Virus record (IMG/VR): IMGVR_UViG_2529292908_000003
Strand: one strand, 5' to 3'
From: a virus
Lineage: Duplodnaviria; Heunggongvirae; Uroviricota; Caudoviricetes
DNA: 18,304 nucleotides
A model generated the notes under the pieces. The model had not been told where the DNA came from and did no database searches. It saw only the letters and a list, made by a program, of their open reading frames with translations. Every line of letters begins with the position of its first letter. The first letter of the stretch is position 1. The position numbers and the translations under genes are program-made. Of the stretch, positions 9,837 through 17,778 are shown piece after piece.

Positions 9837-9858
9837 GCCGGATATGACAAATCCGGCG
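9837..9858 (+). terminator. Hairpin after ynfD (8-bp stem CGCCGGAT/ATCCGGCG, 6-nt loop) with a weak U-tract; possible terminator
   Basis: Perfect inverted repeat 17 nt after the ynfD stop, followed by AUUUGAA. Confidence 0.35.
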
Positions 9859-12504: not shown

Positions 12505-14928
12505 ATGAAAATCCATACCACAGAGGCGCTCATGAAGGCTGAAATCAGCCGTAGAAGTCTGATGAAAACCTCCGCACTTGGCAGTCTTGCGCTGGCAAGC
12601 AGTGCTTTCACTCTGCCATTTTCCCAAATGGTCCGGGCGGCAGAGGCTCCGGTAGAAGAGAAAGCGGTCTGGAGTTCCTGCACCGTTAACTGCGGGAGCC
12701 GCTGTCTGTTACGTTTGCATGTGAAAGATGACACCGTGTACTGGGTGGAGTCTGATACGACAGGTGACGACGTCTACGGTAATCATCAGGTTCGAGCGTG
12801 TTTACGCGGGCGCTCTATCCGCCGACGGATGAATCATCCTGATAGGTTGAAATATCCCATGAAGCGCGTCGGCAAGCGCGGTGAAGGTAAATTTGAACGG
12901 ATAAGTTGGGACGAAGCCCTGGATACCATCAGTGATAATCTTCGGCGGATCCTGAAAGATTACGGCAATGAGGCTGTACATGTCCTGTACGGAACAGGCG
13001 TAGATGGCGGAAACATCACCAACTCAAACGTCCCGTACCGTCTGATGAACTCTTGCGGTGGTTTTCTCAGTCGCTATGGCAGCTACAGTACCGCACAGAT
13101 CAGTGCCGCAATGAGTTATATGTTCGGTGCCAATGATGGCAACAGCCCGGATGATATCGCCAATACGAAACTGGTCGTTATGTTCGGAAATAACCCGGCA
13201 GAAACGCGGATGAGCGGCGGTGGTGTCACTTACTACGTCGAGCAAGCCCGCGAACGTTCAAACGCACGCATGATCGTCATCGATCCACGTTATAACGACA
13301 CTGCTGCCGGGCGTGAAGATGAATGGCTGCCCATTCGCCCTGGCACCGATGGCGCACTGGCCTGTGCGATTGCCTGGGTACTGATTACTGAAAACATGGT
13401 CGATCAGCCATTTCTCGACAAATATTGTGTTGGTTACGATGAAAAAACGCTGCCCGCCAACGCACCACGTAACGCGCATTATAAAGCCTATATTCTGGGC
13501 GAAGGGCCTGACGGCATAGCTAAAACGCCGGAATGGGCAGCAAAAATCACCAGCATCCCGGCAGAAAAAATTATCCAGTTGGCACGAGAGATCGGTTCAG
13601 CAAAACCTGCTTATATTTGTCAGGGTTGGGGGCCACAACGACATTCCAACGGCGAGCAAACATCCCGCGCTATTGCCATGCTTTCCGTTCTCACCGGCAA
13701 CGTCGGCATAAACGGCGGCAACTCAGGCGTACGCGAAGGTAGCTGGGATCTGGGGGTAGAATGGTTCCCGATGCTCGAGAATCCTGTTAAAACGCAGATT
13801 TCCGTCTTTACATGGACAGATGCCATCGACCATGGTACGGAAATGACCGCGACCCGTGATGGTGTTCGTGGAAAAGAAAAACTGGATGTCCCCATCAAGT
13901 TTTTATGGTGCTACGCCAGTAACACATTGATCAATCAACATGGCGACATCAATCACACCCATGAGGTGCTTCAGGATGACAGCAAGTGCGAGATGATTGT
14001 TGGCATTGACCACTTCATGACGGCCTCGGCTAAGTATTGCGATATCCTGTTGCCCGACCTGATGCCAACAGAGCAAGAAGACCTTATCTCTCATGAATCT
14101 GCAGGGAATATGGGCTATGTGATCCTCGCCCAACCCGCAACCTCAGCAAAATTTGAACGCAAACCCATCTACTGGATGCTGAGTGAAGTCGCCAAACGCT
14201 TAGGACCAGACGTTTATCAAACCTTTACTGAAGGTCGCAGTCAGCATGAATGGATCAAATATCTCCATGCGAAAACGAAGGAACGTAACCCTGAGATGCC
14301 CGACTACGAGGAGATGAAAACGACCGGGATCTTTAAGAAAAAATGCCCGGAAGAACACTACGTCGCTTTCCGCGCATTCCGTGAAGATCCACAGGCAAAC
14401 CCGTTGAAAACACCTTCGGGGAAAATCGAAATTTATTCTGAACGACTGGCGAAGATTGCAGATACCTGGGAATTGAAAAAAGATGAAATTATTCATCCCC
14501 TTCCTGCGTATACCCCAGGTTTTGATGGCTGGGACGATCCCCTGCGGAAAACCTATCCACTGCAGTTAACGGGCTTCCATTACAAAGCGCGTACCCACTC
14601 CAGCTACGGCAATATTGATGTGTTACAGCAGGCCTGCCCACAAGAGGTGTGGATCAACCCCATTGATGCTCAGGCACGCGGTATCCGTCATGGCGATACC
14701 GTGCGGGTATTTAACAATAATGGAGAAATGCTGATTGCCGCAAAAGTGACTCCGCGTATTCTGCCTGGCGTTACCGCCATCGGGCAAGGTGCGTGGCTTA
14801 AAGCGGATATGTTTGGTGACCGGGTCGATCACGGCGGCAGTATCAATATTCTGACCTCTCACCGCCCTTCACCGCTGGCAAAGGGAAACCCGTCGCACAG
14901 CAATCTTGTCCAGATCGAAAAGGTTTAA
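12505..14928 (+). CDS. ynfF: Tat-exported molybdopterin oxidoreductase YnfF, paralog of YnfE
   Basis: 807 aa from the second ATG (SD AGTGAG 5 nt upstream); Tat motif ISRRSLMK; high similarity to YnfE throughout. Confidence 0.93.
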   Translation: MKIHTTEALMKAEISRRSLMKTSALGSLALASSAFTLPFSQMVRAAEAPVEEKAVWSSCTVNCGSRCLLRLHVKDDTVYWVESDTTGDDVYGNHQVRACLRGRSIRRRMNHPDRLKYPMKRVGKRGEGKFERISWDEALDTISDNLRRILKDYGNEAVHVLYGTGVDGGNITNSNVPYRLMNSCGGFLSRYGSYSTAQISAAMSYMFGANDGNSPDDIANTKLVVMFGNNPAETRMSGGGVTYYVEQARERSNARMIVIDPRYNDTAAGREDEWLPIRPGTDGALACAIAWVLITENMVDQPFLDKYCVGYDEKTLPANAPRNAHYKAYILGEGPDGIAKTPEWAAKITSIPAEKIIQLAREIGSAKPAYICQGWGPQRHSNGEQTSRAIAMLSVLTGNVGINGGNSGVREGSWDLGVEWFPMLENPVKTQISVFTWTDAIDHGTEMTATRDGVRGKEKLDVPIKFLWCYASNTLINQHGDINHTHEVLQDDSKCEMIVGIDHFMTASAKYCDILLPDLMPTEQEDLISHESAGNMGYVILAQPATSAKFERKPIYWMLSEVAKRLGPDVYQTFTEGRSQHEWIKYLHAKTKERNPEMPDYEEMKTTGIFKKKCPEEHYVAFRAFREDPQANPLKTPSGKIEIYSERLAKIADTWELKKDEIIHPLPAYTPGFDGWDDPLRKTYPLQLTGFHYKARTHSSYGNIDVLQQACPQEVWINPIDAQARGIRHGDTVRVFNNNGEMLIAAKVTPRILPGVTAIGQGAWLKADMFGDRVDHGGSINILTSHRPSPLAKGNPSHSNLVQIEKV

Positions 14929-14938
14929 GGAGTAGCCC

Positions 14939-15051
14939 ATGACCACACAATATGGATTTTTATCGATTCCAGCCGCTGTACTGGCTGTAAAACCTGCGAA
15001 CTGGCGTGCAAAGATTTTAAAGTTGGTTACGTATCGTTTAAAATCAATTAG
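14939..15051 (+). pseudogene. ynfG: ynfG remnant (4Fe-4S ferredoxin subunit): frameshift in a T5 run at 14957-14961, then truncation about 26 codons in
   Basis: ATG 14939 gives MTTQYGF; the ferredoxin motif IDSSRCTGCKTCELACKD lies in the +1 frame with no start codon, ends at TAG 15049-15051, and is followed by unrelated DNA. YnfG is about 205 aa in K-12 (recalled). Confidence 0.7.
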
Positions 15052-15095
15052 ATAGCCCGTCATTTCTGCGCTCACACGTCCCAACATTGAAAAAC

Positions 15096-15129
15096 ATGCA
15101 AAGCTTTGTAAGCCGATGCAAAGCTTTGT
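15096..15129. promoter_or_regulatory. Two copies of a 14-bp repeat ATGCAAAGCTTTGT, each containing the perfect 10-bp palindrome CAAAGCTTTG, spaced 20 bp centre to centre; operator-like
   Basis: Palindromes at 15099-15108 and 15119-15128, read directly; two-helical-turn spacing is typical of a dimeric repressor operator pair. Confidence 0.4.
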
Positions 15130-15215
15130 GTGTCTCACTTTTGTCCCAATACCAATCCGAATCCACCCTTTGTCATCATTGAGAAATGGCAAGGAAGAAA
15201 AGGATGTTACTGCAC

Positions 15216-15248
15216 GATTTGACAAATCCGCCAGAGCTATCGCATACT
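15216..15248 (+). promoter_or_regulatory. Promoter-like module A: palindrome GATTTGACAAATC overlapping a consensus -35 TTGACA (15219-15224), 18-bp spacer, -10-like CATACT
   Basis: 16-bp GATTTGACAAATCCGC is identical to 16628-16643; consensus -35; weak -10. Confidence 0.4.
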
Positions 15249-15266
15249 GACCGCACTACAACGTCA

Positions 15267-15302
15267 GCGGTCAACCGCACCCGATAGCTTTGCGGCTTTT
15301 TT
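15267..15302 (+). terminator. Attenuator/terminator-like element A: GCGG-tcaa-CCGC-(12 nt)-GCGG-c-UUUUUU
   Basis: Three short complementary segments allowing alternative pairings, followed by T6; same layout as 16692-16726. Confidence 0.4.
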
Positions 15303-15407
15303 ATGCCTGTTTACAGGTATCGCCATATCAATGGCGGGTCGAGAGAGCCTAATACAATACCCTTTCGGGAAATACGCTCCGCCGTCTGACGCGGTAGTTG
15401 AAGCCCG

Positions 15408-15416
15408 CCCCCCCCC
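15408..15416. repeat. Homopolymeric C9 tract about 40 bp upstream of the antirepressor-like gene A start
   Basis: Nine consecutive C at 15408-15416 (preceded by GCCCG), within the 5' leader of gene A. Confidence 0.9.
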
Positions 15417-15458
15417 ACTAAGGTGGCAGTCAATACTAAAACGTCAGGAGTCATAATT

Positions 15459-15743
15459 ATGACTAATCAACTCATTCCCGTTTTCGATGGAACCATCAAC
15501 AACGAACCAGTTTTACTTTGCAATGCTCGCAATCTGCACGCTTTTCTTGGTATTGGTAAAATGTTTGCTCACTGGATCAAGGACAGGCTGGGTGAATATG
15601 GATTCGTTGAAAATCAAGATTTTGTGATTGCTTGCCAAAATTGGCAAGCAAAAGGTAGAGGCGGTCACAACCGCAAGGAATACCACCTCACCCTCGACAC
15701 AGCCAAAGAGCTTGCGATGGTTGACGACTGCGTCCAATACTGA
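15459..15743 (+). CDS. Antirepressor-like protein, AntA-type N-terminal domain only (truncated paralog of the gene at 15993)
   Basis: AGGAG SD 8 nt before ATG 15459; product MTNQLIPVFDGTINNEPVLLCNARNLHAFLG...HLTLDTAKELAMV is about 60 percent identical to the N-terminus of the next gene, then diverges and stops; 44 bp (15681-15724) are identical to 16209-16252. Confidence 0.6.
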   Translation: MTNQLIPVFDGTINNEPVLLCNARNLHAFLGIGKMFAHWIKDRLGEYGFVENQDFVIACQNWQAKGRGGHNRKEYHLTLDTAKELAMVDDCVQY

Positions 15744-15790
15744 CTATACTCCGCGCCGAGGCCTCGAAAACCTCCCAAAAGCGGATTAAA

Positions 15791-15816
15791 CCAACCCCGT
15801 CAGTGTTGGATTTTTT
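15791..15816 (+). terminator. Putative intrinsic terminator after gene A (stem CCAAC/GTTGG, loop CCCGTCAGT, then A-UUUUUU)
   Basis: Hairpin plus T6, 48 bp after the gene A stop; loop sequence CCCGTCAGT recurs at 16704-16712. Confidence 0.45.
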
Positions 15817-15992
15817 ATGCCTGTTATTCAGTGATAGCACAGTGTGCGGTCACATCCCCGATCAATGTCGGGAGGGCGACGAATACAACACCCGCAAGGG
15901 GAATAAGTCCGCGGTATCTTTTGGGCCGTTTCGAGCCTCCCGGCACCACATCTTGTGGTGGCATTTCTCGAAAAAAGCCAAAGGAGGTCATC

Positions 15993-16622
15993 ATGACCAC
16001 TCAACTCATCCCTGTGTTTGAAGGTACAATCTCAAATGAACCTACGCTTCTGGTGAACGCGCGTGATTTGCATGGATTTTTAGAGGTAGGTAAAGATTTT
16101 TCTAACTGGATACGGGCCAGGCTAAACGAGTATGGATTCGTAGAAAATTTAGACTACATTCTATTTTCGCCAAATTTGGCGAAAACTCCAGGCCGCCGCC
16201 GCAAGGATTACCACCTCACCCTCGACACAGCCAAAGAGCTTGCGATGGTTGAACGTAACGAAAAAGGCCGCCAGATACGCCGCTACTTCATCGAGTGCGA
16301 AAAGAAACTTCGCAACATTCAGCCAGTACAAGCAGAACCACAGCCGCAATTCACAGCCGAGGAAATCATCCTCCTTTGCTACATGCAGCTCTGGATGGAA
16401 AAAGCCCAGGACATCAGCAAACACCTGTATCCCATTATGAAAGAGCTGAACTCCTCATACACGAACAAGCTGTATGACATTGCGTTTGAGACCATCTACA
16501 TGGTGACGAAGAACAGAGACGCGCTACTGAGGGAGGTAACACGTCTCGACATGTCAAGTTCCGTTATCCAGCGGGCCATGCCAATGCTGAAAAGCCTGCG
16601 GGCAAGACAATTCGAGTTTTAA
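15993..16622 (+). CDS. Phage antirepressor-like protein (AntA-type N-terminal domain plus a C-terminal domain shared with the gene at 16877)
   Basis: AGGAGG SD 5 nt before ATG 15993; MTTQLIPVFEGTISNEPTLLVNARDLHGFLEVGKDFSNWIRARLNEYGFVE...HLTLDTAKELAMVERNEKGRQIRRYFIE, and a C-terminus PQFTAEEIILLCYMQLWMEKAQ...LRARQFEF shared with the next gene. The track's 54-codon upstream extension has no RBS. Confidence 0.75.
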   Translation: MTTQLIPVFEGTISNEPTLLVNARDLHGFLEVGKDFSNWIRARLNEYGFVENLDYILFSPNLAKTPGRRRKDYHLTLDTAKELAMVERNEKGRQIRRYFIECEKKLRNIQPVQAEPQPQFTAEEIILLCYMQLWMEKAQDISKHLYPIMKELNSSYTNKLYDIAFETIYMVTKNRDALLREVTRLDMSSSVIQRAMPMLKSLRARQFEF

Positions 16623-16627
16623 GGCCA

Positions 16628-16660
16628 GATTTGACAAATCCGCATTAACGGGGATATATT
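16628..16660 (+). promoter_or_regulatory. Promoter-like module C: palindrome GATTTGACAAATC with -35 TTGACA (16631-16636), 18-bp spacer, -10 TATATT (16655-16660)
   Basis: Consensus -35, 5 of 6 -10; 16-bp identity with module A; begins 6 bp after the gene B stop. Confidence 0.5.
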
Positions 16661-16691
16661 CCGCTCCATGGTGCTGAACACACCTTCGAAA

Positions 16692-16726
16692 GCGGAAACC
16701 GCGCCCGTCAGTCATGCGGATTTTTT
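16692..16726 (+). terminator. Attenuator/terminator-like element C: GCGG-aaa-CCGC-(13 nt, containing CCCGTCAGT)-GCGG-a-UUUUUU
   Basis: Same three-segment layout as 15267-15302 despite different intervening sequence; T6 at 16721-16726. Confidence 0.4.
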
Positions 16727-16876
16727 ATGTCCATTTTTCAGATATGGTCGGGTAGCGCGTATACCGAAAAACAGCCGTAAGGCTAAGGATGCGGGCCGAA
16801 CTTTCGACGGTGTTCAAGTACCCGACCGCCCTGCTGAACACGGGGTGATCTGAACGAATCGAAAGGACATAAAACT

Positions 16877-17509
16877 ATGAGCACTCAACTTGTATTCCAC
16901 AATGTTCAATTCCAGACCGTTCAACGAGATGGTCTACTGTGGTTGTCTGCCCCCCAAATAGCCAGCGCGTTACAATATGCAGATCAAAGCTCGGTAACAC
17001 GCATCTATGCCCGTCACGCAGATGAATTCACAAACGGTATGACAGCCTCGGTCAAATTGACCGATCCTAAAGGGGACAAGCAAGAGACTCGCATCTTCTC
17101 ATTACGCGGCGCTCACCTAATAGCGATGTTTGCTCGAACTCCAATAGCAAAAGAGTTTCGTCGCTGGGTATTGGATATTCTGGACCGTGAAGCTGAAAAA
17201 AGCGCTATACCGCCACAACCTCATATTCAGCCTCAATTCACAGCAGAAGACATCATCCTGCTCTGCTACGTTCAACTCTGGATGGAAAAAGCACAACAAC
17301 TCAGTAAACAGCTATACCCCGTCATGAGAGAACTGAACTCTGATTACTATGGAAAGCTGTTTGATCTGGCCTACGAAACTCGTCATATAACCAACCGGAC
17401 TCGCGACACATTGCTCCGCGAAGCAGCAAAACTTGATCCCGCCAACTATACGGTGCACAGGGCCAGAAGTATGCTGGCGCAACTAAGAGCAAGACAATTT
17501 GAATTCTGA
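16877..17509 (+). CDS. Phage antirepressor-like protein (Bro-N-type N-terminal domain plus the C-terminal domain shared with the gene at 15993)
   Basis: AAGGA SD; N-terminus MSTQLVFHNVQFQTVQRDGLLWLSAPQIASALQY (Bro-N-like); C-terminus PQFTAEDIILLCYVQLWMEKAQ...LRARQFEF about 65 percent identical to the preceding gene. Confidence 0.75.
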   Translation: MSTQLVFHNVQFQTVQRDGLLWLSAPQIASALQYADQSSVTRIYARHADEFTNGMTASVKLTDPKGDKQETRIFSLRGAHLIAMFARTPIAKEFRRWVLDILDREAEKSAIPPQPHIQPQFTAEDIILLCYVQLWMEKAQQLSKQLYPVMRELNSDYYGKLFDLAYETRHITNRTRDTLLREAAKLDPANYTVHRARSMLAQLRARQFEF

Positions 17510-17514
17510 AACCA

Positions 17515-17536
17515 AAGGAGCTTCGGCTCCTTTTTT
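17515..17536 (+). terminator. Rho-independent terminator after the antirepressor array: 7-bp stem AAGGAGC/GCTCCTT, UUCG tetraloop, T-run
   Basis: Perfect stem with UUCG loop and T6, read directly, 6 nt after the stop at 17509. Confidence 0.75.
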
Positions 17537-17556
17537 CATGCCTGAAGGAAAGGAAA

Positions 17557-17778
17557 ATGGCAGATATCATCGACAATGCCGCTGAAATCGAAGAATTGCA
17601 GCGCAATCTCTCCCTGCAAAAATACAAATCCGATAGTAATGCCCCATCTGCTACTCATTGTTGCGAGTGTGGCGATCCGATAGATGAGCGGCGACGCCTG
17701 GCTGTTCGTGGATGCCGAGCTTGCGCCAGTTGCCAGCAGGATATTGAACTTATCAACAAACAGAGAGGTGTGAAGTGA
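17557..17778 (+). CDS. TraR/DksA-family C4 zinc-finger protein (phage TraR-like transcription modulator)
   Basis: AAGGAAAGGA SD; 73 aa with CxxC-x17-CxxC (CECGDPIDERRRLAVRGCRACASCQ), typical of TraR-like proteins of conjugative elements and lambdoid phages. Confidence 0.75.
   Translation: MADIIDNAAEIEELQRNLSLQKYKSDSNAPSATHCCECGDPIDERRRLAVRGCRACASCQQDIELINKQRGVK

Follow-up and report, generated by a model that had tools for sequence, protein, structure and literature searches.

What do the repeated units that stand in front of three antirepressor-type genes do in IMGVR_UViG_2529292908_000003, an IMG/VR virus record of the class Caudoviricetes? The whole stretch of 18,304 nucleotides (nt) that was analysed is called the window here, and the three units are called modules A, B and C. 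An earlier note had described two of them as a promoter with a palindrome across its -35, followed by an attenuator-like leader. We consider it probable that they belong to cassettes of the c4/IsrK type, in which the repeat unit supplies the promoter, a pairing partner (sites a1 and b1) and a leaky terminator, and in which a following small RNA (sRNA), sRNA-Xcc1, would pair with two further sites (a2 and b2) at the antirepressor (ant) gene and block its translation. The cassettes would thus probably keep the three prophage antirepressor genes silent.

At the core of each cassette is a member of the family of sRNA-Xcc1 of Xanthomonas campestris (Rfam RF02221), which the earlier note had overlooked. 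It is located 20-50 nt after each T-run, just 5' of each ant gene. With the covariance model of the family, copies B and C scored above the gathering score of 53 bits and copy A slightly below it. All three cassettes present the same order: a sigma-70-like promoter, a leader of 50-60 nt, a hairpin with a T-run, Xcc1 of about 87 nt, a Shine-Dalgarno (SD) sequence and a gene of the AntA/Bro-N type. The Xcc1 copies were aligned by hand from cmscan output and nhmmer, as the MAFFT alignment of the three copies was inconsistent with the structure. The AAUACAA...GAAU internal loop of hairpin 1 was nearly invariant, and the closing stem was followed by ACCA or RCCC. The features of the three modules are listed below, with the pairing sites named by P1 usage: a1 and b1 in the leader, b' and a' in Xcc1, a2 and b2 before the gene.

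15219-15248, + strand: promoter-like site of module A, -35 TTGACA (15219-15224) and -10 CATACT (15243-15248); GATTTGACAAATCCGC overlaps the -35
15255-15270, + strand: leader targets of module A, a1 ACTAC (15255-15259) and b1 CGTCAG (15262-15267), then GCGG
15275-15302, + strand: leader hairpin of module A, CCGCA/TGCGG with loop CCCGATAGCTT and T6 (15297-15302); terminator-like; it doubles as the 3' arm of a long hairpin that has the promoter spacer (15220-15242) as its 5' arm
15333-15417, + strand: sRNA-Xcc1 copy A, 49.9 bits, E = 3e-7, just under the gathering score; b' CTGACG (15386-15391), a' GTAGT (15394-15398)
15435-15461, + strand: downstream targets of module A, a2 ACTA (15435-15438), b2 CGTCAG (15442-15447), SD GGAG (15447-15450), ATG at 15459
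15721-15750, + strand: promoter-like site of module B, TTGACG-N18-TATACT, within the 3' end of open reading frame (ORF) 1
15763-15784, + strand: leader targets of module B, a1 CTCGAAA (15763-15769, in the loop of GAGG/CCTC) and b1 CCCAAAAG (15774-15781), then GCGG
15791-15816, + strand: leader hairpin of module B, CCAAC/GTTGG with loop CCCGTCAGT and T6 (15811-15816); arms of the long hairpin at 15732-15744 and 15799-15811
15867-15952, + strand: sRNA-Xcc1 copy B, 73.4 bits; b' CTTTTGGG (15918-15925), a' TTTCGAG (15929-15935)
15967-15995, + strand: downstream targets of module B, a2 CTCGAAA (15967-15973), b2 CCAAAG (15978-15983), SD GGAGG (15983-15987), ATG at 15993
16631-16660, + strand: promoter-like site of module C, TTGACA-N18-TATATT, 11/12 matches; the 16-mer lies at 16628-16643
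16674-16695, + strand: leader targets of module C, a1 CTGAAC (16674-16679, in the loop of GGTG/CACC) and b1 TCGAAAG (16686-16692), then GCGG
16699-16732, + strand: leader hairpin of module C, CCGCG/TGCGG with loop CCCGTCAGTCA and T6 (16721-16726); arms of the long hairpin at 16632-16652 and 16704-16727
16746-16835, + strand: sRNA-Xcc1 copy C, 67.7 bits; b' CTTTCGA (16801-16807), a' GTTCAAG (16812-16818)
16850-16879, + strand: downstream targets of module C, a2 CTGAAC (16850-16855), b2 TCGAAAG (16859-16865), SD AGGA (16864-16867), ATG at 16877

The evidence that carries this reading is a variable word present three times in each module type: in the leader, 5' of the first GCGG and a few nt after the predicted transcription start; directly 5' of the SD or overlapping it; and, in reverse-complemented form, in the hairpin-2 loop of Xcc1. 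Another word, which varies less and pairs with the strand after hairpin 2, is likewise repeated in the leader and before the SD. In the window, the predicted duplexes between the accessible b'-a' segment and the leader sites (t1) had energies of -17.0, -21.3 and -18.9 kcal/mol for the cognate pairs, compared with -5 to -10 kcal/mol for the non-cognate ones. At the SD site (t2), the corresponding values were -12.6, -18.9 and -14.1 kcal/mol against -4.7 to -12.5 kcal/mol. These calculations and exact-word tests replaced RNAduplex on whole Xcc1 and whole leaders, in which GC-rich stretches inflated the non-cognate energies. The complementarity between leader and Xcc1 was longer and stronger than that between Xcc1 and the ribosome-binding site.

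The same arrangement was observed in a phage set built from 113 loci encoding relatives of two full-length Ant proteins, which yielded 127 Xcc1 copies, 54 unique modules and 22 module types (types cited by number are written M01, M06 and so on). The three-site word was seen in 22 of the 22 types, with the sites changing together, as in these examples (leader / hairpin 2 / SD): AACAAATAAG / CTTATTTG / AACAAATAAG; ACTTCAAAG / CTTTGAAG / ACTTCAAAG; ACAAACAG / CTGTTTGT / ACAAACAG; and AATATAGG / CCTATATT / AATATAGG. Across these types, cognate duplexes were stronger than non-cognate ones at both sites (mean of -27.9 vs -18.7 kcal/mol for t1, and of -17.3 vs -11.6 kcal/mol for t2). The general idea of the earlier note, that an RNA controls the antirepressor genes, is supported; neither Xcc1 nor its complementarity to leader and ribosome-binding site had been recognised.

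A scan with an Xcc1 core pattern, using one genome per species, detected 120 loci (108 non-redundant instances) in Pseudomonas, Xanthomonas, Neisseria, Pasteurellaceae, Desulfovibrionaceae, Alphaproteobacteria, Acidobacteria and others. An exact word of at least 7 nt common to the leader, the region after Xcc1 and the reverse complement of hairpin 2 was found in 35 of the 108 instances, and one of at least 6 nt in 59, against expectations of 1.6 and 7.3, respectively, when hairpins were swapped between loci. The downstream word ended at a median of 9 nt 5' of the start codon. The genes 3' of Xcc1 in these loci encode Bro-N, Rha, ORF6N, KilA-N, AntA, HTH and SymE toxin proteins. This is concordant with reports of Xcc1 in integron cassettes of Xanthomonas, where it stands 5' of symE in the same orientation, and in APSE phages, where it precedes an ORF6N gene. 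Units of leader and Xcc1 can also stand in tandem with no ORF between them: in Haemophilus influenzae, a second unit is present about 150 nt after the Xcc1 of the first, and in Xylella fastidiosa five copies at a spacing of about 380 bp have been described (PMC12189769). The leader and Xcc1 cassette can apparently exist as an RNA-only array.

Expression data were available for one cassette, in EDL933. The genome of EDL933 has a single cassette, of type M06, beside a gene annotated 'phage antirepressor Ant'. A study that combined RNA-seq with ribosome profiling lists an 'sRNA-Xcc1' whose sequence matches the Xcc1 of this cassette exactly; it was covered by 40,293 RNA-seq reads, a level near that of CsrB, but by just 290 ribosome footprints. 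As the reads are high and the footprints few, the cassette promoter appears to be active in the lysogen, the T-run to be read through and the RNA to be untranslated. Promoter-like sites were sought between the T-run and the 5' end of Xcc1 and none was found, and in Xcc 8004 Xcc1 is a discrete RNA of 88 nt. Together with the abundance in EDL933, these observations suggest that Xcc1 is excised from the leader transcript. For excision by RNase P, as for C4 RNA, the indications are circumstantial: the lack of a promoter-like site 5' of Xcc1, and the ACCA or RCCC after the closing stem. The micro-RNA 24B_1 of phage Phi24B was considered and set aside, as it belongs to a different locus (the lom region).

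Two further observations were made on the RNA itself. Its copy A has a homopolymer of nine C residues in the 3' tail (15408-15416), where homologous modules have CCACCCC or C7. A small hairpin is present directly 3' of Xcc1 in module B (CACCAC/GTGGTG, 15944-15960) and in module C (CGCCCTG/CGGGGTG, 16828-16847), with stems that differ by type; it could protect the 3' end or belong to a larger fold.

Among known systems, the immI region of P1/P7 is organised like the window: on one strand follow a promoter, a1, b1, a hairpin with a T-run, an RNA of about 87 nt, a2, b2 at the SD and the gene, with similar spacing. In the P1 record, the order is promoter P1c4, a1, b1, c4 RNA, a2, b2 and icd. The P1 leader reads GCGGACAACCGCAGATTTCCGATATTGCGGTATTTTTGTGTCC, and its part between b1 and c4, GTGCGGACAACCGCAGATTTCCGATATTGCGGTATTTTTGTGTCC, has GCGG, CCGC, a loop with UCCGAUAU, GCGG, a T-run and GTGTCC, which is the layout that the earlier note had described; P1 and the window thus have in common GCGG, CCGC, a loop with YCCGAUA, GCGG, a U-run and RUGUCC. 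In P1, b1 and b2 are GTTAGTG followed by CGG and by AGG, and in the window the address is likewise followed by GCGG in the leader and by GGAG before the gene. In the window as in P1/P7, the address differs between types (immunity types in the latter), and in modules B and C a1 stands in a hairpin loop. The RNAs are also alike: b' is in the loop of hairpin 2 and a' in the strand after it in both P1 c4 and Xcc1, and the C4 and Xcc1 Rfam models share a length of 87 nt and a build of one closing stem plus two hairpins, the closing stems being similar (AUGGYGGG...CCYGCCACC). The C4-type arrangement, in which loop and joining strand are complementary to an upstream and a downstream pair of sites, the latter at the ribosome-binding site, was found in the window.

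There are also differences. The window has no icd-like ORF, nor any ORF between Xcc1 and the start of ant. In C4 the target is the ribosome-binding site of icd, on whose translation the transcription of ant depends; here b2 abuts the SD of ant, and the SD itself is the target. Hairpin 1 also differs from that of C4: in Xcc1 it is long and carries the invariant AAUACAA internal loop. Unlike P1, the window has three tandem cassettes with the promoter nested in a long hairpin, and the hosts of such cassettes extend far beyond those of enterobacterial phages.

In Gifsy-1, the short RNA IsrK ends at a leaky Rho-independent terminator, and read-through gives the processed STnc1160, which is complementary to IsrK, and then anrP; its authors relate IsrK to seqA of P4 (PMC4825925). 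The order and spacing of IsrK, STnc1160 and anrP resemble those of the window cassettes, and among RNAs studied by experiment IsrK comes nearest to the terminator-ended small RNA that the earlier note had proposed. IsrK activates through coupling to orf45, whereas the window has no such ORF and the direction of control here is only predicted. The CI RNA of P4 is processed from a leader, is complementary to one upstream and one downstream site in the same transcript, and controls lytic or anti-immunity genes. The CA RNA of N15 is likewise processed from a leader, is complementary to one upstream and one downstream site in its own transcript, and controls genes of this kind. The output of CI and CA is premature termination of transcription, whereas the downstream site in the window covers the SD and points to translational control. 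The earlier note had cited P22 sar, a small RNA which pairs with the ribosome-binding region of antirepressor mRNA, as an example. This did not fit, since transcription of sar runs across its target on the opposite strand. In the window one strand carries the regulator together with its two targets, and pairing is through short matched addresses only; P1 c4 or Gifsy-1 IsrK is the more suitable model.

On the c4/IsrK-type reading, transcription would start at a constitutive sigma-70 promoter, and the first 20 nt or so of the transcript would display the a1 and b1 targets. A weak hairpin with a U-run would stop part of the transcripts, giving a leader RNA of about 50-60 nt, the counterpart of IsrK and c4-a1b1. 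The remaining transcripts would be read into the structured sRNA-Xcc1 of about 87 nt, the counterpart of c4, in which b' (in the loop of hairpin 2) and a' are complementary both to a1/b1 and to a2/b2 overlapping the SD of ant. Xcc1 would probably be cut from the leader, be stable, pair with a2/b2 and so block translation of the antirepressor. The a1/b1 leader would be a second partner of Xcc1, either a competitor that frees the ribosome-binding site, as for IsrK, or a site of termination feedback, as in P4. As the three cassettes carry different addresses, each Xcc1 would act mainly on its own gene.

The second role of the leader could also be the main one: Xcc1 on nascent a1/b1 would trigger the weak terminator, as in P4 CI and N15 CA, thereby limiting the synthesis both of itself and of ant mRNA, and control would be mainly transcriptional. 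The a1/b1 target lies just 5' of the terminator, its complementarity to Xcc1 exceeds that of the ribosome-binding site in length and strength, P4 provides a precedent, and the same idea has been proposed for STnc1160 at the IsrK terminator. This alternative is nonetheless unlikely in our estimation: no conserved alternative structure ties the occupancy of a1/b1 to the formation of the hairpin, read-through is not shut off in EDL933, where Xcc1 is very abundant, and in Gifsy-1 the co-expression of STnc1160 left the effect of IsrK undiminished.

The leader hairpin was the basis of the attenuator proposed in the earlier note, in which segment 1 (GCGG) would pair with segment 2 (CCGC) and, switched by a signal, block the 2:3 terminator. 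The GCGG/CCGC/GCGG layout was confirmed at 15267/15275/15292 in module A and at 16692/16699/16716 in module C, with the T6 runs where they had been placed, and RNAfold draws the 1:2 hairpin in short transcripts. The hairpin and T-run are located 49-61 nt after the -10, so that a short leader RNA is predicted, and the T-runs end 157, 177 and 151 nt from the ATGs of the AntA/Bro-N ORFs, which agrees with the claim that the modules precede antirepressor-like genes. Elsewhere, a run of at least five T residues within 110 nt 5' of Xcc1 was present in 89 of 108 instances, compared with 13% of control windows, at a median distance of 37 nt from the 5' end of Xcc1. Among 109 non-identical leader ends the hairpin abutted the T-run in 99 (25% after shuffling), with 30 different stems, and RUGC comes after the T-run. 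The loop YCCGWYAG was conserved from P1 to Acidobacteria although the stems vary (in the window at 15280-15290, 15796-15804 and 16704-16714). The recurrence of this layout in unrelated bacteria and in P1 shows that the repeats are not the product of a recent local duplication.

Pairs were counted in an alignment of 55 leader ends and scored against shuffles. For the terminator helix (2:3), five of six pairs had changes on both sides; 56 doubly changed cells were counted against 27.5 +/- 4.9 after shuffling (0 of 500 shuffles as high), and the covariation score was 0.376, compared with 0.177 in shuffles and at most 0.108 with the partner slid. For the antiterminator helix (1:2), the central pair was broken, without compensation, in 28 of the 55 leaders, only 3 cells were doubly changed, and the score (0.120) was near that of shuffles (0.099). 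Segment 1 is GCGG or ACGG even where the terminator stem changes to CCAAC, CCCACC, ATCAC, CCACA and others. Pairing of 1:2 is possible in only 14 of the 30 stem types, and impossible in module B of the window. In many families, segment 1 also takes part in the leader's complementarity with the 5' strand of hairpin 2. The two mutually exclusive helices are thus not both conserved: the 2:3 hairpin with its T-run is real and covaries, the antiterminator is not maintained, and a cis attenuator is accordingly an improbable account of these leaders.

A leader peptide from the ATG after the T-run was also considered, and rejected: the frames have 5, 17 and 28 codons, lack an SD and are unconserved. 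In module C, TTTTATGTCC (16723-16732) after the T-run is complementary to the SD region (16865-16874). The RUGYC segment was not retained as a general anti-SD segment, because it was convincing only in type C and M15, and it is kept as a feature of module C only; in other types it resembles, by eye, the 5' strand of a small local hairpin.

When folded from the -35 to the T-run, the modules formed long hairpins of -30.8 (A, z -4.6), -27.6 (B, z -3.3) and -35.2 kcal/mol (C, z -3.2), in which the promoter spacer makes up the 5' arm, and the terminator's loop together with its 3' strand the 3' arm. The pairing between spacer and terminator arm was about -21 kcal/mol in each of three unrelated types, compared with -8 +/- 2.5 kcal/mol for shuffled spacers (0 of 1000 as good). 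This might indicate that, in the E. coli types, transcripts coming from upstream would meet a strong terminator, while transcripts from the cassette's own promoter, which do not contain the 5' arm, would form only a weak one; the cassette would then be insulated from upstream transcription. Pasteurellaceae have, in place of the long hairpin, a terminator of its own 5' of the cassette that overlaps with the promoter. The long hairpin was also considered as an integron attC-like element or a single-strand-DNA promoter, and no feature supporting either was found.

At the promoters, GATTTGACAAATCCGC is present exactly at 15216-15231 and 16628-16643 (0.01 expected by chance), as first noted, and GGNTTTTTTATGYC occurs three times, at 15294, 15808 and 16718 (0.09 expected). 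CCCGTCAGT is the loop common to modules B and C, again as described, but module B is not a degenerate third copy: it is complete, with its own promoter-like site, leader targets and long hairpin, and is merely of a different sequence type. The promoter reading is strengthened by the -35/-10 pair, which is kept in every E. coli-type module despite differing flanks, and by the high abundance of the downstream RNA in EDL933. In distant taxa, 18 of 84 instances passed a sigma-70 consensus scan compared with 4 of 84 controls, a scan that is weak for high-GC hosts, with a median of 60 nt from the -10 to the T-run.

A protein operator had been suggested in the earlier note from the palindrome GATTTG-A-CAAATC, which is a perfect 6+6 palindrome across the -35 in modules A and C; the binding of a repressor there could be the main control of these promoters. 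P1 offers a precedent, as the C1-controlled operator Oc4 overlaps the -35 of P2c4, a second promoter 5' of c4. The -35 hexamer was retained throughout the phage types, while the palindrome was lost in several. One half was changed without compensation in 6 of the 18 types with a TTGACA promoter (M06, M08, M11, M16, M18 and M20), and the palindrome was absent from module B, M09, M14 and M15. Its right half is also accounted for as the base of the long hairpin, and Xcc1 is abundant in the EDL933 lysogen although the palindrome of that copy is broken. There is little to recommend the operator as the main control on this evidence. Inspection by eye for LexA boxes and CI-type operators near the promoters gave nothing convincing.

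Some side observations concern the promoters. A CCGC is present at, or at most 3 nt after, each -10 (15251-15254, 15752-15755 and 16661-16664), as a GC-rich discriminator, and a gene of the TraR/DksA family lies 700 nt 3' of module C; stringent or DksA-type control of these promoters is a possibility on the basis of such motifs. GATATGACAAATCCGG (9841-9856), 5' of the ynfE-like ORF, is two mismatches from the 16-mer and is probably due to chance.

Very improbable, finally, is an ordinary gene boundary, that is, a terminator and promoter between phage 'morons', repeated by duplication of ant and next to an unrelated trans-acting Xcc1, with no RNA regulator at work: the upstream partners of module C do vary between genomes (Ant or ORF6N genes), which shows that modules are shuffled, and TTTTTCATGCCTG also comes after the ordinary terminator 3' of ORF3, but the T-run is 3' of the promoter and not 5' of it, the modules are only 65-85% alike and yet each keeps matching addresses at three sites, and other phyla as well as P1 have this layout too.

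Several points weigh against the c4/IsrK-type reading itself. The models C4 (RF01695), c4-a1b1 (RF03163) and isrK (RF01394) gave no match at E<=5 over 14900-17600, or at E<=10 over 16640-16880. The same search in P1 detected c4 at 68.8 bits, the c4-a1b1 leader at 51 bits and, in the equivalent stretch of that leader, isrK at 35 bits, the last of these below its threshold (gathering score 50). Kinship with these three families, as far as such comparisons reach, is thus one of architecture and a few shared sequence features and not of family membership. The short hairpins have 5 bp and loops of 9-11 nt, which is weak for an intrinsic terminator, and for RNAs that begin at the predicted start site the folding was no better than that of shuffled sequences. 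M09, M14, M15 and P1 lack the long hairpin, and within type A it decays rather than compensates. Whole-leader minimum-free-energy folds vary by module: the leader of A pairs with Xcc1 in cis, and in C the stretch 3' of the T-run occludes the SD. This pairing of TTTTATGTCC with GGACATAAAA may add cis repression in module C. In distant bacteria, the exact three-site word is present in only about one third to one half of the instances, and units of the Xanthomonas type have a clear leader site and no obvious copy at the ribosome-binding site. The most conserved features, the YCCGWYAG loop and the AAUACAA internal loop of hairpin 1, have no role in the model. As base pairing with the targets explains neither, they could be recognition sites for a protein or RNase. 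Promoter and terminator are predictions, and the ends, the processing, the pairing and the repression are read from sequence.

The setting of the modules was also examined. The window contains ynfE/ynfF-like genes and a ynfG/dmsB-like gene which starts at ATG 14940 and loses its reading frame near 15025. Beyond about 15025 the sequence corresponds to the terminal part of lambdoid phages of the Stx type, Shigella phages POCJ13 and 75/02 Stx among them. A prophage appears to have inserted in ynfG, a point for which homology to POCJ13-type phages was the sole check. The first prophage genes, all on the + strand, encode AntA (15459-15743), AntA with P22_AR_C (15993-16622) and Bro-N with P22_AR_C (16877-17509); a gene for a TraR/DksA zinc-finger protein and a DUF4752 gene come after these three antirepressor-type genes. 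The first AntA gene is truncated, leaving an N-terminal AntA fragment of 94 aa, and the truncation point coincides with the -35 of module B (15715-15750). The junction of ORF1 and module B recurs in 24 IMG/VR loci (type M01), which makes it an established recombinant and not a local accident. In RefSeq, 119 complete E. coli genomes carry module C, and in the 12 of them listed no annotation is present between the coding sequences at this module.

At the prophage end, in the stretch that separates the interrupted ynfG-like gene from module A, ATGCAAAGCTTTGT occurs as a direct repeat of 14 nt (15096 and 15116), and its copies also make a 17-bp hairpin (15094-15133); these repeats may be recombinase arm sites or a terminator. 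After ORF3, a terminator (17517-17544) consists of GGAGCttcgGCTCC and T6, and is followed by CATGCCTG, the motif found after the T-run of the modules, and then by the TraR/DksA-like gene.

In the open-access full-text literature, sRNA-Xcc1 is either treated as trans-acting, as in its description as a virulence-linked sRNA with predicted distant targets, or merely annotated, and no mechanism is assigned to it. No description of the leader, the three-site addresses or the link to c4 was found there, a 2025 review of phage sRNAs does not mention sRNA-Xcc1, and the silencing of AntA/Bro genes beside the attachment site of Stx-type phages is undescribed in the searchable literature. The analysis therefore proposes a mechanism for an Rfam family which is annotated in many genomes only as 'Xanthomonas-like sRNA', and an architectural link from it to c4, CI and IsrK.

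A broader view is put forward tentatively, as possible though doubtful. Xcc1 and its leader might be a widespread, programmable three-site RNA switch that gates antirepressor, KilA-N-type and toxin genes in phages, integron cassettes and islands, from Proteobacteria to Acidobacteria, with a1b1 as a decoy, a'b' as the repressor loop and a2b2 as the ribosome-binding site. As an anti-antisense RNA, the terminated leader would determine the threshold of release, the strength of termination in E. coli phages would depend on where the transcript starts, and orthogonal tandem addresses would let one Stx-type prophage control several antirepressors independently. Short addresses that covary in this way are a natural set of orthogonal RNA regulators. 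Antirepressors can switch their own prophage, or neighbouring prophages, to lytic growth without the SOS response, which in Stx-type phages leads to toxin production, and the cassettes proposed here give a concrete and testable answer to the question of how such genes are kept silent.

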